From: Escherichia phage pEC-M719-6WT.2 | Sequence record: OQ845958.1 | DNA: 64,000 nucleotides | Strand: one strand, 5' to 3' | Shown: positions 4,825 through 46,725 of the stretch, in pieces | How the letters are laid out: each line of letters begins with the position of its first letter | Position numbering within the stretch: the stretch's first letter is position 1 | Notes under the pieces: model-generated | Told to the model about the DNA's origin: nothing | Databases searched by the model: none | What the model saw: only the letters and a program-made list of their open reading frames with translations | Position numbers and translations under genes: made by a program

Positions 4825-4853
4825 AGGGGACCTTCGGGTCCCTTTTTTATTTT
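4825..4853 (+). terminator. intrinsic terminator (GGGACC-UUCG-GGUCCC hairpin + U-tract)
   Basis: ggggaccttcgggtccc followed by ttttttatttt immediately after the gene 32 stop. Confidence 0.7.
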
Positions 4854-4859
4854 CAAAAA

Positions 4860-4895
4860 GTAGTGTACAAGTCCTTTGAGCTAAGGCATAATGAT
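4860..4895 (+). promoter_or_regulatory. sigma70-like early promoter cassette (-35 GTGTACAA, -10 CATAAT)
   Basis: tagtgtacaa, 17 nt spacer, cataat; the same cassette recurs upstream of several small ORFs (6335, 14378, 15925, 22154, 46373). Confidence 0.5.
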
Positions 4896-4930
4896 TCCAT
4901 CAACTACTGATAACAACTGAGGAAATAAAA

Positions 4931-6334: not shown

Positions 6335-6368
6335 AGTGTACAACCAAATGGGGCTATGACATAATGGT
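6335..6368 (+). promoter_or_regulatory. early promoter cassette (GTGTACAA ... CATAAT)
   Basis: aaagtagtgtacaa ... cataatggtcccatactgag; near-identical to the cassettes at 4860 and 15925. Confidence 0.5.
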
Positions 6369-6404
6369 CCCATACTGAGCTACCAAATAAAACTGGAGAA
6401 TAAA

Positions 6405-6644
6405 ATGAAATTACAACGTGAAAGCATCAAAGATTCAGAAGTTAAAGGCAAATGGTACTTTACAATCCAGGGTAACAATCCAGAAGCTCTGGAAAAAGCT
6501 GAAGAAACTTTATGCGCGATGGGTTGGAAAGATGAGTGCGATGGTTGTCCTCTTTATGAAGATGGTAGCTCATCTGGTTTCTGGATTCATCACTCTGACG
6601 TTGACCAATTTAAAGCTGACTGGAAAGTTGCCAAGAAAGCGTGA
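6405..6644 (+). CDS. hypothetical protein
   Basis: 79-aa ORF with GGAGAATAAA ribosome-binding site downstream of early promoter cassette. Confidence 0.5.
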   Translation: MKLQRESIKDSEVKGKWYFTIQGNNPEALEKAEETLCAMGWKDECDGCPLYEDGSSSGFWIHHSDVDQFKADWKVAKKA

Positions 6645-20444: not shown

Positions 20445-20744
20445 ATGATTTTAACTGAACAAGAAACAATTCGCCTTCGCGAAAAAGTCAAGACTATCTT
20501 GTCTGTCGGCTTTCATGAAGTTCTGTTTGAAAAAGCAGATGGTAGCATCCGTCGTATGACTTGTACTCGCGACCTGGACCTGCTTCCATATAAAGAAATC
20601 CAGGCCCCTGGACCAGAAGTCAATAAAGAACCAGTTAGCTATATCCGGGTATTTGATACCAAGCTTAATGAATGGCGTTCATTCTGTTTCAATAAATTGA
20701 TTTCCGTGAATGGACTGCAGACCGAGACTCTGCTCGTCCTTTAA
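20445..20744 (+). CDS. hypothetical protein
   Basis: 99-aa ORF directly after the previous ORF. Confidence 0.4.
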   Translation: MILTEQETIRLREKVKTILSVGFHEVLFEKADGSIRRMTCTRDLDLLPYKEIQAPGPEVNKEPVSYIRVFDTKLNEWRSFCFNKLISVNGLQTETLLVL

Positions 20745-20769
20745 TGCTTCAAACAATGCATGCTATTAT
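20744..20769 (+). promoter_or_regulatory. candidate MotA-type middle promoter for gene 31
   Basis: aTGCTTCA, about 12 nt, TATTAT immediately upstream of the gene 31 start. Confidence 0.4.
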
Positions 20770-20775
20770 TAATAC

Positions 20776-21123
20776 ATGACCAAACAACATGGATTAAATA
20801 TGGAATTACCAATTAAAGCAGTAGGTGAATATATTATTTTGGTTTCTGAGCCAAAGCAAGCCGGTGATGAAGAAACTACGGCATCAGGTATCGTTATCGG
20901 AAAACTCCATCAGGGTGAAATCCCGGAGATGTGTGAAGTATTTTCGGTTGGTCCGGATGTTCCTGAAGGATTCTGCGAAGTAGGTGATTTGACTCCTCTT
21001 CCGGTTGGCAAGATTGCAAACGTTCCACATCCTCTGGTTGCTCTGGGGCTTAAGCAGGCTAAAGAAGTTAAGCAAAAATTTGTGACCTGTCATTATAAAG
21101 CTGTTCCTTGTCTTTATAAGTAA
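20776..21123 (+). CDS. 31: co-chaperonin (GroES-like) for capsid folding, gp31
   Basis: 115 aa; AVGEYxILVSEPxQAGDEE, [17 protein letters not shown], VTCHYKAxPCLYK match T4 gp31 from memory. True start could be the second ATG at 20800. Confidence 0.9.
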
Positions 21124-21294
21124 AATTAGCGTTATAAATAATAATATGGATTGGTTGATGTCATACAGAGCTTTGCTGGTGTATGGGGTTAGCTAATCCT
21201 AAACGGTGGACTACAACTGAGAGACTTGCCGAAAGGAAGTGAAATTCAGAAGAACGTGTCCACCAAATATTCACCTCATATTGAGGCTTCTAAA

Positions 21295-21549
21295 ATGTCT
21301 TTAAACAAACAATTACAACACGCTCTCGAACTGCAACGCACTGCATGGAATAACGGTCACGAAAACTACGGCGCATCTATTGATGTTGAAGCCGAAGCAC
21401 TGGAAATTCTGCAGTATTTCAAACATCTTAACCCGGTTCAAACCGACCTTCGCGCAGTGCTCGAAGCAAAAGATGAACTGAAATTTGCTAAGCCGCTGGC
21501 ATCTGCTGCCCGTAAAGCTGTTCGCCATTTTGTCGTAACCCTGAAGTAA
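21295..21549 (+). CDS. rIII: rIII-like protein (by position and size only; internal start of ORF-track 21226-21549)
   Basis: 84 aa from ATG with GAGG ribosome-binding site; T4 rIII is a small protein lying next to gene 31. No sequence memory to confirm. Confidence 0.35.
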   Translation: MSLNKQLQHALELQRTAWNNGHENYGASIDVEAEALEILQYFKHLNPVQTDLRAVLEAKDELKFAKPLASAARKAVRHFVVTLK

Positions 21550-21947
21550 GCTGTAGGTGATTCGCTACCTTAGTGCGGCTAGAAAATCGAGGAGCCGTCG
21601 AACCGTCTGATTAATGATTTGCGAATCATTATAGTTTTAAGACCCCGGCAGTTTTACGGTGTACCTCTTGAATGTTATTCTTATAGCGGCAAGTGCATGC
21701 TACCCCGAGGTGATGGCCAATCGGGAGTACGCCTCAAGGCCTATATATCCATCAGTATATATCTTATCCTCGAGAAATCGAACCCGGAACCTTTAAGCTA
21801 ACGGTGTGCAACAGATAAGAGCTATAAGGTATGATGACGAGGTTTATGGTTATCCTGTCGTTAAATATCCGAAACCTAATGTTCCCTTCGAGGGCTTGCG
21901 CAGGCAATGCCAATAAGTCCTGCATTCTATTTTAAAGAGAATTTAAT
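21550..21947. other. ORF-free, relatively GC-rich, hairpin-dense intergenic segment; candidate structured RNA or regulatory region
   Basis: No ORF of 60 aa or more that looks real on either strand; hairpins CGGCT..AGCCG and AATGATTtgcgAATCATT; composition differs from flanking coding DNA. Confidence 0.3.
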
Positions 21948-22109
21948 ATGGCTAAGAAAGAAGTTAAAGTTGTTGATGGCTCCTCCAAACGCGCTGGTTA
22001 CAAGCGTGCGTCCAACAAGCGAATCAATCAGGTGACTGATAAACTTCAGGCTCGTGCTCGTGCGGTATTGCGTGCCGATGCAGCTTGCTTTGGTAAGCCG
22101 AAAGCATAA
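21948..22109 (+). CDS. small basic protein (53 aa), not in ORF track
   Basis: ATG ... TAA frame encoding MAKKEVKVVDGSSKRAGYKRASNKRINQVTDKLQARARAVLRADAACFGKPKA; followed directly by a strong terminator. Confidence 0.4.
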   Translation: MAKKEVKVVDGSSKRAGYKRASNKRINQVTDKLQARARAVLRADAACFGKPKA

Positions 22110-22112
22110 GTT

Positions 22113-22143
22113 CAGGGACTCTTCGGAGTCCCTTTTTTATTTT
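22113..22143 (+). terminator. intrinsic terminator (GGGACUC-UUCG-GAGUCCC + U-tract)
   Basis: agggactcttcggagtcccttttttatttt. Confidence 0.7.
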
Positions 22144-22153
22144 CCATAAAGGG

Positions 22154-22183
22154 GTTTACAACAGGGTTGGTCCAGTGCATAAT
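22154..22183 (+). promoter_or_regulatory. early promoter cassette (GTTTACAA ... CATAAT)
   Basis: ggggtttacaa, 17 nt, cataatgattccatactgagtta; leader nearly identical to the cassette at 46373-46420. Confidence 0.5.
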
Positions 22184-22224
22184 GATTCCATACTGAGTTA
22201 CACAATAAAACACTGGAGAATAAA

Positions 22225-22593
22225 ATGAAAATCAATCTTAACTCATACATCAAAGGTAAAGACCACGACGGTTACAAAGCCATTGAAACTAAAGAGATGC
22301 AATGGCACTTGTATAAAGAACAGTTTGAATTTGTTGGTTGCATGACTCCTGAAGGTCCTTCTGATGACTTCTCCTGGAAAATTATGGTAACAAACTTTTT
22401 TACTGGTGATACATACGAACTGAAAACTTTGATTTTGGGTAAGATTCGTTGTAAGACCTATGAAGATGAAGAAACTGGTTATTCTGAAGATGTTACATGG
22501 TATCAAAATGGTCGCACCACTGCAGACCTTCTGATTGAAAAAATGAAAGCTAAGGGTGAATTAAATTTAGATAATTGGATTAAAGTCGCATAA
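22225..22593 (+). CDS. hypothetical protein
   Basis: 122-aa ORF with GGAGAATAAA ribosome-binding site. Confidence 0.5.
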   Translation: MKINLNSYIKGKDHDGYKAIETKEMQWHLYKEQFEFVGCMTPEGPSDDFSWKIMVTNFFTGDTYELKTLILGKIRCKTYEDEETGYSEDVTWYQNGRTTADLLIEKMKAKGELNLDNWIKVA

Positions 22594-22597
22594 AACA

Positions 22598-22640
22598 GTT
22601 TACTTTGGTACAGGTTATGATATTATAAACCTGTACCAAC
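22598..22640 (+). promoter_or_regulatory. early promoter embedded in a 12-bp inverted repeat (promoter plus stem-loop cassette)
   Basis: GTTTACt TTGGTACAGGTT atgaTATTATaa AACCTGTACCAA; -10 sits in the loop of a perfect 12-bp stem. Confidence 0.55.
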
Positions 22641-22664
22641 AAATGAAAACAACTGGAGAATAAA

Positions 22665-23030
22665 ATGAACTACATCAACTTTGAACGCAAATATGTTTCT
22701 AACTGCATCCCAGGTTCTTCTGAAGTTATTTGCTTGTGGAAACATCAAAACGGTTCAGTGTGTGAAATTGAACAGTATATGACTCCTAACTACGTTTATA
22801 TGCGATTTGAAAATGGTATCACTCTTTCAATCACGATGGAAGGTTCGGTATTCAAAATCGCATTAGATGATGACTTCCGTGAGCGTGATTTAGGGACTCA
22901 TCCTTGCTGGAATGGTGTTAATCGCAAGCTTCTGGTTAAAACTTGGATTCGTCACATCCTGAGCAACAAAGCAAAACCTGAACACCTGGAAGCAATCTTT
23001 GATGTAGTTCTTAATGAATTTGATATCTAA
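22665..23030 (+). CDS. hypothetical protein
   Basis: 121-aa ORF with GGAGAATAAA ribosome-binding site. Confidence 0.5.
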   Translation: MNYINFERKYVSNCIPGSSEVICLWKHQNGSVCEIEQYMTPNYVYMRFENGITLSITMEGSVFKIALDDDFRERDLGTHPCWNGVNRKLLVKTWIRHILSNKAKPEHLEAIFDVVLNEFDI

Positions 23031-23067
23031 TCTTAAATGGGGCGAAAGCCCCCTTGAGGAAAATACT

Positions 23068-23355
23068 ATGTTTATGACTACTTACTTTGATACACGTAAA
23101 AATTTCTGTGAAGTTGTTTTCTCTAAAAAAGGTCTTAATGTTCCTGCTGGGTGTGAACCAACACGTGATTCCATTAAGAACTATGTTGATGTAGTTTGCC
23201 CACTAGAATTCCGGACTGTTAATGGACGCGATACTCTGGCAATCACCAAGCTTAGACGCGACATTGATATTGCCCCAATTGCAGCACGTGAAATTAATTC
23301 ATCTGATATTAATGGCGGTAATGTTAAATCACACGGTTTCCAGATGAGGTTCTAA
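23068..23355 (+). CDS. hypothetical protein (internal start of ORF-track 23014-23355)
   Basis: ATG preceded by GAGGAAAATACT; 95 aa. Confidence 0.45.
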   Translation: MFMTTYFDTRKNFCEVVFSKKGLNVPAGCEPTRDSIKNYVDVVCPLEFRTVNGRDTLAITKLRRDIDIAPIAAREINSSDINGGNVKSHGFQMRF

Positions 23356-23549
23356 TGAAATTATTCTTATCACAAACTGTTCAGTTAAAAGGTGTGGGTA
23401 TTCCTGGAATGATTTCAAAGGTCCTGCCTGCGTTTAAATTAGGCAATACCCAAATTAAAGAAGCATATGCAGTCTTGTGGGTTGATGGAACTGAAGACGT
23501 TCGCATGGGCGGTGAGTTGTCTGTAATCAAATGTTTAAAGCGAGGATAA
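23355..23549 (+). CDS. hypothetical protein
   Basis: 64-aa ORF, start overlapping the upstream stop. Confidence 0.4.
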   Translation: MKLFLSQTVQLKGVGIPGMISKVLPAFKLGNTQIKEAYAVLWVDGTEDVRMGGELSVIKCLKRG

Positions 23550-46372: not shown

Positions 46373-46420
46373 GTTTACAACCAGATTAAGATAAGACATA
46401 ATGATTCCATACTGAGTTAA
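46373..46420 (+). promoter_or_regulatory. early promoter cassette (GTTTACAA in short hairpin ... CATAAT)
   Basis: gttGTTTACAAc ... cataatgattccatactgagtta; leader nearly identical to the cassette at 22154. Confidence 0.5.
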
Positions 46421-46443
46421 CAAACAAAACCTGGAGTTTAAAA

Positions 46444-46725
46444 ATGAACAAAGCAACTTTCCTTCTGAACACCTTTAAAAAATTGGAAATTGAAGTTATT
46501 GCATTGGTCAACAAATACCCAAATGGTGTTAATGGTAATGCTCTGAACAAACTAGTTAAAAAATATGAAAACTTAGCATATGACACTGATTTCTGGTGGA
46601 ATGGTAATTATTCTACTCACACTAAAGATAAAAATGGTAACTGGTTGAAACTTCAAGAAAACAATGTTAACTTCAGAGACCTCATCAAGCGCCGGGTAGA
46701 AGTTCATTTAAATGGTATGGTATGA
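46444..46725 (+). CDS. hypothetical early protein inserted between late genes 24 and 23
   Basis: 93-aa ORF on the opposite strand to flanking capsid genes, with its own promoter and terminator. Confidence 0.55.
   Translation: MNKATFLLNTFKKLEIEVIALVNKYPNGVNGNALNKLVKKYENLAYDTDFWWNGNYSTHTKDKNGNWLKLQENNVNFRDLIKRRVEVHLNGMV

Follow-up and report, generated by a model that had tools for sequence, protein, structure and literature searches.

Gene 30.9 of a T4-like phage: a conserved small basic protein encoded between shuffled RNA cassettes and a terminator/early-promoter element

The DNA analysed here is a 64,000-nt stretch of Escherichia phage pEC-M719-6WT.2 (sequence record OQ845958.1), referred to in its entirety as the window. 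The region of interest is 99.9% identical to Escherichia virus TH22 (Gaprivervirus, Straboviridae) and aligns to more than 1000 genomes of T4-like phages. It contains, in order, the genes cd, 31.2, 31.1, 31 and rIII, a non-coding spacer, a small open reading frame (ORF), and the genes 30.8 and 30.7 (Table 1); the order in T4 is identical, and the T4 gene at the position equivalent to the small ORF is 30.9 (NP_049823; UniProt P17310), whose product of 58 residues and ~6.5 kDa is described as a 'conserved hypothetical protein'. The start of rIII given in the table follows from comparison with T4, which places the real start at the ATG (84 residues); the mechanical ORF list begins it at a TTG at 21226 (107 residues). 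This ATG is preceded by the sequence CACCUC-auauu-GAGG, which could pair the rIII ribosome-binding site into a small hairpin.

Table 1. Features of the rIII–30.8 region of the window and of the gene 30.9 product
Feature	Positions	Strand	Description
rIII	21295..21549	+	Lysis-inhibition accessory protein, upstream cistron; from T4 comparison and tblastn with the window's rIII protein
rIII–30.9 spacer	21550..21947	+	Non-coding, 398 nt; cassettes E, D, A, B and C; no Rfam match
Cassette E	21550–21585	+	Recurring spacer cassette
Cassette D	21586–21674	+	Recurring spacer cassette
Cassette A	21685..21823	+	Structured RNA, 139 nt; 7 helices, 37 base pairs
Cassette B	~21838–21884	+	Hairpin, loop GGTTATC, then GTTAAAT
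Cassette C	~21885–21934	+	Motif GUACCC-loop-GGGCUUG
30.9 ribosome-binding site	21935..21941	+	Purine-rich AAGAGAA, 7–13 nt upstream of ATG; GAG 8–10 nt before ATG
Gene 30.9 orthologue	21948..22109	+	ATG start, TAA stop; 53 residues, 5.8 kDa, pI 10.8
Intrinsic terminator (predicted)	22114..22143	+	8-bp stem, UUCG loop (22114–22133), T-run (22134–22143)
Early-type promoter of 30.8 (predicted)	22155..22183	+	TTTACA-17-CATAAT; PeSL-like cassette with the 30.9 terminator
Gene 30.8 orthologue	22225..22593	+	Downstream neighbour, separate early unit; GGAG (RegB motif) in ribosome-binding site
gp30.9, Lys-rich tail	residues 1–13		Disordered in AlphaFold2 model
gp30.9, invariant motif	residues 13–26		SKRAGYKRxSNxRI; alignment of gp30.9 members
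gp30.9, amphipathic helix	residues 24–48		AlphaFold2 pLDDT ~90

The product of the small ORF as taken from the ORF listing, MAKKEVKVVDGSSKRAGYKRASNKRINQVTDKLQARARAVLRADAACFGKPKA, is the same peptide as had been quoted in an earlier reading of this DNA made from the letters alone (hereafter, the sequence-only reading), and the 53-codon ATG-to-TAA frame described there is therefore present as stated. That reading called the frame unannotated, which is true of the ORF track on which it drew, where the frame fell below the size cut-off; the identical protein is, however, annotated as gp30.9 in phage VR7 (100% identity). Nor is the ORF a new gene: it belongs to the T4 gene 30.9 family, with NP_049823 as its T4 orthologue. 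The profile of PHROG 1427, a family of unassigned function, matches the window protein over its full length (residues 1–53; E = 2.9e-26), and the ORF lies on the same strand as rIII and 30.8, between the two. T4 gp30.9 (MAKQAKAKKAVEKKVGDSKRAGYKRGSNSRINQTVEKIMRRARAVLRDDASRFGKQKA) aligns with the window protein over the entire core, the identity in the aligned part being ~66–70%, and the invariant core SKRAGYKRxSNxRI...RARxV(L/I)..D...FG is common to both. The two genes are further alike in their position (rIII, 30.9, terminator, 30.8), their size class and the possession of a terminator hairpin. They differ in that the window/VR7 version is five N-terminal residues shorter (MAKKEV... versus MAKQAKAKKAVEK... 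in T4) and in the length of the 30.9 leader (398 nt in the window versus 244 nt in T4), the window leader being longer because of an additional element, cassette A. On this evidence, the 53-codon frame is almost certainly both a real gene and the orthologue of T4 30.9. Gene 30.9 itself is already known: its annotation in T4 goes back decades, and approximately 1000 sequenced relatives carry it.

Searches with tblastn using the 53-residue protein gave matches in 998 phage records; the order rIII, 30.9, hairpin, 30.8 is seen in at least 11 genera, and 30.9 nearly always lies between rIII and 30.8. Our first search for homologous proteins, which relied on a word index, reached close relatives only, and an exhaustive profile search was needed to define the family. 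Among 1.84 billion representative proteins, the latter found 16 clusters, 41–97 residues in length and all basic, each of which carries (S/G)(K/R)(A/T/H)GYKRxSNxR(I/V)(N/D) followed by a helix. Judged from these searches, the gp30.9 family is small and confined to T4-like phages.

A 53-codon ORF accompanied by a single hairpin is not in itself beyond chance, and the case for a gene consequently rests on conservation in relatives. All 60 loci that carry the motif keep the frame open as far as the stop, beginning with a conserved MAK or MSK, and these loci span at least 11 genera (including Tequatro-, Mosig-, Gapriver-, Dhaka-, Jiaoda-, Karam-, Gelderland-, Winkler-, Moon- and Kagamiyamavirus, together with unclassified Serratia, Erwinia and Citrobacter phages). 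The sequence-only reading had named stops or frameshifts in related phages as an outcome that would count against it; these were looked for and not found, and the homologous small ORFs and dN/dS values that it had proposed to examine support it: by the Nei–Gojobori method, the median dN/dS is 0.28 and the maximum 0.71 (131 pairs with dS > 0.1). Moreover, 40 distinct coding sequences scored in a single alignment give a pN/pS of 0.42 for the 30.9 frame versus 1.22 and 1.43 for the other two, which are closed by stops in 33/40 and 40/40 sequences, respectively. The variable columns fall at codon positions one, two and three in the numbers 26, 20 and 44, the third position thus being the most variable; the N-terminal indels among the homologues are all multiples of three; and both the start codon and the ribosome-binding site are conserved. 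The latter does not contain the GGAG motif recognized by RegB, whereas the corresponding site of 30.8 does (at 22215). On these comparative data, the ORF is under frame-specific purifying selection and, together with its synteny, this bears out the view that it is a genuine small protein-coding gene.

The alternative, that the ORF is untranslated and that its conservation reflects constraint at the RNA or DNA level, as the 3' part of either the structured leader or the terminator cassette, draws on the location of the ORF between conserved RNA elements and on proteomic data. In T4, the 30.9 transcript is classed as 'early' by time-resolved RNA-seq, but the protein is undetected by LC-MS (Class_P = NA; PMC9697503, Table S2). 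The tryptic peptides of T4 gp30.9 do not exceed 7 residues, however, such that this non-detection is weak counter-evidence, and those of the window protein do not exceed 10; with peptides this short, proteomics is unlikely to reveal gp30.9, and it is the comparative data that support its translation and selection. In vivo expression of rIII and 30.9 was reportedly described by Driukas and Nivinskas in 2003 (Biologija), as cited in PMC9409239. The frame specificity of the selection, the stops in the other frames, the excess of variation at third codon positions, the indels in multiples of three and the conserved initiation signals all run counter to a purely nucleic acid-level constraint, which they largely refute and which we regard as very improbable.

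Within the window, 30.9 is most simply read as the final cistron of transcripts initiated further upstream, since gene 31 is preceded by a MotA box (20742) and rIII by the late promoter motif TATAAATA (21133), whereas a scan for σ70 promoters found none between 21142 and 22155 and, therefore, none inside the 30.9 leader. It would thus close a rightward 31–rIII–30.9 stretch, with the transcript ending at the predicted terminator 4 nt past the stop codon. The arrangement is different in three distant homologues (L168, L170 and L061), where 30.9 forms a self-contained unit with a promoter of σ70/early type directly upstream (TTGACA-17-TATTAT, TTGACC-17-TATAAT or GTTTAC-17-TATTAT). These distant homologues also have a downstream hairpin of their own, L061 being the exception where a terminator hairpin with a T-run is concerned. 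In Aeromonas phage avDM9-HANS, the 30.9 homologue follows gene 31 after only 30 nt, and no rIII is annotated or called between them.

The terminator itself consists of AGGGACTC-TTCG-GAGTCCCT followed by TTTTTTATTTT, and starts 4 bases past the 30.9 stop codon. Its stem contains five G–C pairs, and the GC-rich stem, short loop and U-tract are those of an intrinsic terminator; the energy calculated with ViennaRNA for the hairpin is −14.2 kcal/mol. A pattern scan of positions 21000–23000 returned it as the sole terminator-like site, shuffled sequences being expected to give 1.6 per 2 kb. Among the homologues, 39 of the 40 distinct downstream sequences have a hairpin with a T-run that begins 3–14 nt past the stop; only L061, the most distant homologue, does not. 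Five variants of the stem are seen (GGGACUC(C) / GGGACUCC, GGGAGAC, GGGAACC, GGGGCUCC and GAGGACUCC), in each of which the 3' arm matches to give full pairing, and the loop may be UUCG, UACG, AUAU, CGAA or others. On the basis of these alignments, the structure of the 30.9 terminator is conserved through compensatory change.

The UUCG-loop terminator that the sequence-only reading placed directly after the ORF is thus well founded. Its further description as the gene's own terminator holds in so far as the hairpin is conserved and directly downstream, but not in full, since it also supplies the stem-loop of a cassette that is repeated: 116 nt spanning the hairpin and the early promoter of 30.8 (22114–22230) recur at 4827–4900, 6360–6410 and 46397–46448 with 78–87% identity. 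Composite terminator/early-promoter elements of T4-type phages are known as PeSLs, and have the promoter consensus TTTACW-N17-TAYWAT (PMC2839356, PMC4122927). The cassette resembles these in having a terminator stem-loop and, ~20 nt further on, an early promoter, of which the −35 element and the spacing fit the consensus, and in recurring at several intergenic sites of the window (three further copies). It departs from them in its −10 element, CATAAT, which deviates at the first base, and in that the copy after 30.9 keeps its position over many genera instead of lying at a variable indel junction. The hairpin would stop the transcript that bears 30.9, and the early promoter of the cassette would restart transcription for 30.8.

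Upstream of the ORF, the sequence-only reading had noted a structured region, and the spacer between rIII and 30.9 (21550–21947) does indeed contain conserved structure. A search of Rfam with 21540–21960 gave nothing at E ≤ 10, and one with 20500–23500 at E ≤ 1 gave only chance-level matches, such that the structured leader corresponds to no Rfam covariance model. The spacer is a mosaic: its 52 distinct versions range from 114 to 416 nt, and the order of the cassettes is E-D-A-B-C in the window, B-E-A-C2 in JD18 and C-B-hairpin in CC31; T4 lacks A. The cassette B hairpin is present in all 52 distinct spacers and the C motif in most; these small hairpins are the only cassettes found with 30.9 across all the Tevenvirinae sampled, although the most distant 30.9 homologues lack both. 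A further hairpin lies just before the 30.9 ribosome-binding site, and has a conserved loop, CAAUG(C/U)CAAUAAG, and one compensatory stem pair. In cassette D, a GGAG occurs in the loop of a UCGA/UCGA hairpin (21586–21600) and may be a RegB site. The long hairpin that T4 and the window share in their rIII leaders (~21207–21262) is homologous to one that immediately precedes 30.9 in JD18 (local alignment score 63 versus a shuffle maximum of 25), albeit with different closing stems, and this placement before 30.9 is seen in Jiaodavirus and Moonvirus phages. This homology implies that one RNA cassette serves different genes in different phages. As far as the comparison of genomes goes, the structured region is an assembly of mobile RNA cassettes and not a dedicated 30.9 leader, and gene 30.9 is independent of it.

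Two other interpretations of the spacer were considered and set aside. Pairings that would sequester the 30.9 ribosome-binding site can be found by eye (AUUCU/AGAAU in the window and CCUC/GAGG in one other locus, L060), but RNAalifold gives no consensus pairing. In some phages, a micro-peptide, YDxxVxGYPxVKYPKPxVPFEGL, can be read from cassettes B and C in frame past the rIII stop; it was rejected because compensating +1/−1 indels between T4 and the window shift this frame while the hairpin is kept, and because the cassette order is reversed in other genera and there is no conserved start codon.

The most distinctive component of the spacer is cassette A. The consensus fold of its 20 distinct copies comprises 7 helices, and 21 of the 37 pairs show changes on both sides; the corresponding number in shuffled controls is 7.9 ± 1.7 (none of 500 reaching 21) and in slid controls at most 6. 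Likewise, 97.7% of the cells at paired positions hold standard pairs, versus 88.5% in the shuffled and 27–42% in the slid controls, and the frequency of G·U pairs indicates that the RNA is made from the + strand. A covariance model built for the cassette finds one copy in the window. Cassette A is present as a single copy in each of 406 phage records, its carriers including JK23, JS98 and SP18, and is absent from T4, VR7 and CC31; the matches in IMG/VR are all on contigs of ~93–179 kb, most of which are also among the loci that bear 30.9. An occurrence in bacteria was rejected: the 62 exact 16-mer matches in 596 Gb are fewer than the ~280 estimated for a random 16-mer and are attributable to chance, and none of these loci scores with the covariance model (the best reaching 17 bits, E = 0.12). 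In the unrelated Grimontviridae phage PKM.Lu.22.1 (76 kb; L020 900–1038), cassette E and a terminator come after cassette A and there is no 30.9 in the vicinity, and in Klebsiella phage K41P2 (Slopekvirus; L022 801–943) a diverged copy occupies a gap without an annotated gene, downstream of a uvsY-like gene and adjoining helicase genes. Given these copies away from 30.9, and the presence of 30.9 without cassette A in T4, VR7 and CC31, the two are separable and, to judge from this distribution, not obligatorily linked; the same pattern suggests that cassette A is an independent, horizontally transferring RNA gene. It has been stated that no regulatory RNA has so far been functionally characterized in T4-type phages (PMC3014915). 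Cassette A looks like an undescribed class of phage non-coding RNA, and this covariation-supported 139-nt RNA and the shuffled cassettes in the 31–rIII–30.9 leaders are a more interesting outcome of the analysis than the gene itself.

The protein is, as the sequence-only reading put it, rich in lysine and arginine and strongly basic (15 Lys and Arg versus 4 Asp and Glu). A comparison of 11 diverse members shows no variation at 22 positions: M1, K3, V6, G11, S13–R20, N23, R25, I26, R36, A37, V40, D44, F48, G49 and A53. A model calculated with AlphaFold2 from an alignment of 18 sequences is of moderate confidence (mean pLDDT 71, pTM 0.39) and, in addition to the elements in Table 1, contains a short helix at residues 14–20. 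Read by eye, the alignment places the conserved hydrophobic residues I26, L/I33, A37, V40, L/I41 and F48 along a single face of the long helix with heptad-like spacing. Some distant members end in basic tails rich in Lys, Ala and Pro, of the AKKA/PKKA type (...PKKAKSRKPSATKAAKAAKKI in P0030 and ...KTKKVSSSKPKAKKA in P0034), which the window protein lacks. Searches with gp30.9 of Pfam (at E ≤ 10) and NCBIfam, and of the PDB with phmmer, gave no matches, and the best Foldseek hit to the model (E = 9) is at chance level. The best result of a profile search against the PDB, a helix of SlmA (E = 0.37), was also rejected as chance. The protein thus shows no similarity to characterized nucleic acid-binding or ribosomal families in Pfam, NCBIfam or the PDB, and its distant homologues are equally without significant matches to characterized families. 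The literature on gp30.9 function that we could find consists of citations to Driukas and Nivinskas 2003 (Biologija) and Truncaite et al. 2006 (Virology 344:378). What can now be defined, for a nearly universal early protein of the Tevenvirinae, is its invariant motif and its architecture.

Overall, the explanation that we favour, with a probability of about 0.8, is that the locus carries the orthologue of T4 30.9, which encodes a basic 53-residue protein, ends at a terminator/promoter cassette and has a product predicted to bind nucleic acid. Taken as a separate claim, nucleic acid binding by gp30.9 stands at slightly under even odds, and derives from composition and predicted architecture, not from homology: the basic segment and the tail would contact the nucleic acid, whereas the helix of ~25 residues would dimerize or dock onto a partner. 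A basic composition would also suit many other roles, such as binding to acidic proteins or association with ribosomes or membranes. Specific binding to RNA is more doubtful; RNA is somewhat favoured over DNA because the Arg/Lys-rich segment, in which one residue is aromatic, is reminiscent of RNA-binding peptides. The arginine-rich motif class of such peptides includes the N proteins of λ and P22 and Tat and Rev of HIV. Like these, gp30.9 is short, very basic, largely unstructured or helical, and encoded next to conserved RNA hairpins; unlike them, it is as rich in Lys as in Arg, it has no sequence homology to them, and nothing indicates antitermination. The likeness, whether to arginine-rich peptides or to DNA binders composed of a basic region and a helix, is one of architecture only. 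The second of these comparisons leads to an alternative in which gp30.9 would be a small DNA-binding, nucleoid-associated early protein, either histone H1-like or of the basic-region-plus-zipper type, with host or phage DNA as its target. The basic segment does lie immediately N-terminal to the amphipathic helix, the tails of P0030 and P0034 would fit such a role, and 30.9 stays in the early region of cd, 31 and DNA ligase, the ligase gene being adjacent or one gene removed in distant phages. Nonetheless, the window protein has no such tail, resemblance to DNA-binding families was not found, and gene neighbourhood is a poor predictor of function in the early regions of T4-like phages, such that we consider this unlikely.

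Less probable still are two proposals that take their lead from the neighbours of the gene. In the first, gp30.9 would associate with the ribosome or with translation in the manner of a ribosomal protein, and might be linked to the adjacent RIII, which binds ribosomal protein S1 and restrains RegB (PMC9409239). Its size, charge and extended helical shape are like those of small ribosomal proteins, and 30.9 adjoins rIII in the same orientation, but no ribosomal protein family was matched in searches of Pfam and NCBIfam or in the profile search of the PDB with all its ribosome structures, and the homologue in the Aeromonas phage has no rIII beside it. In the second, gp30.9 would be an arginine-rich-motif RNA binder that recognizes the hairpins of its own leader (B or C), and thereby controls the translation or stability of its own mRNA. 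The prevalence of the B-type hairpin and the C motif in the spacers, the conserved-loop hairpin just before the ribosome-binding site with its compensatory pair, and the single invariant Tyr within the basic motif of gp30.9 are all suggestive. There is also a precedent in the T4 autoregulators gp32, gp43 and RegA with their leader operators (PMC3014915), with which 30.9 has in common that it is an early or middle gene of the T4 family preceded by conserved leader RNA structure; the elements of the 30.9 leader are, however, shuffled cassettes with no fixed tie to 30.9, and gp30.9 is unrelated to these proteins and far smaller. Moreover, distant members manage without such a leader (the 30-nt spacer of avDM9-HANS and the promoters directly upstream in L168, L170 and L061), the cassettes change order and position among genera, one leader hairpin precedes rIII in T4 and 30.9 in JD18, and no consensus fold in which the ribosome-binding site is sequestered emerges from RNAalifold; autoregulation is accordingly improbable. 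A looser version, in which gp30.9 is the protein partner of the travelling hairpin cassettes B and C, and possibly of cassette A RNA, in T4-like phages, is a comparably long shot, but if it were true, the locus would act as a small ribonucleoprotein or autoregulatory module of the phage and not a plain gene with a long leader.

Elsewhere in the region, the hairpin between 30.8 and 30.7 (22590–22658, + strand) gave a sub-threshold match to mir-126 (21.5 bits, E = 0.71) that is due to chance; it is most likely an intergenic stem-loop or terminator near a promoter-like site at 22599–22626. In Cronobacter phage Pet-CM3-4 (L013 1052–1351), the spacer is open in the rIII frame all through into 30.9, over 40 codons, and in CC31 and STP4-a it is likewise open in this frame right past the rIII stop. 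The open frame in Pet-CM3-4, which would permit a readthrough fusion, is probably fortuitous (the chance is ~15% for 40 codons).
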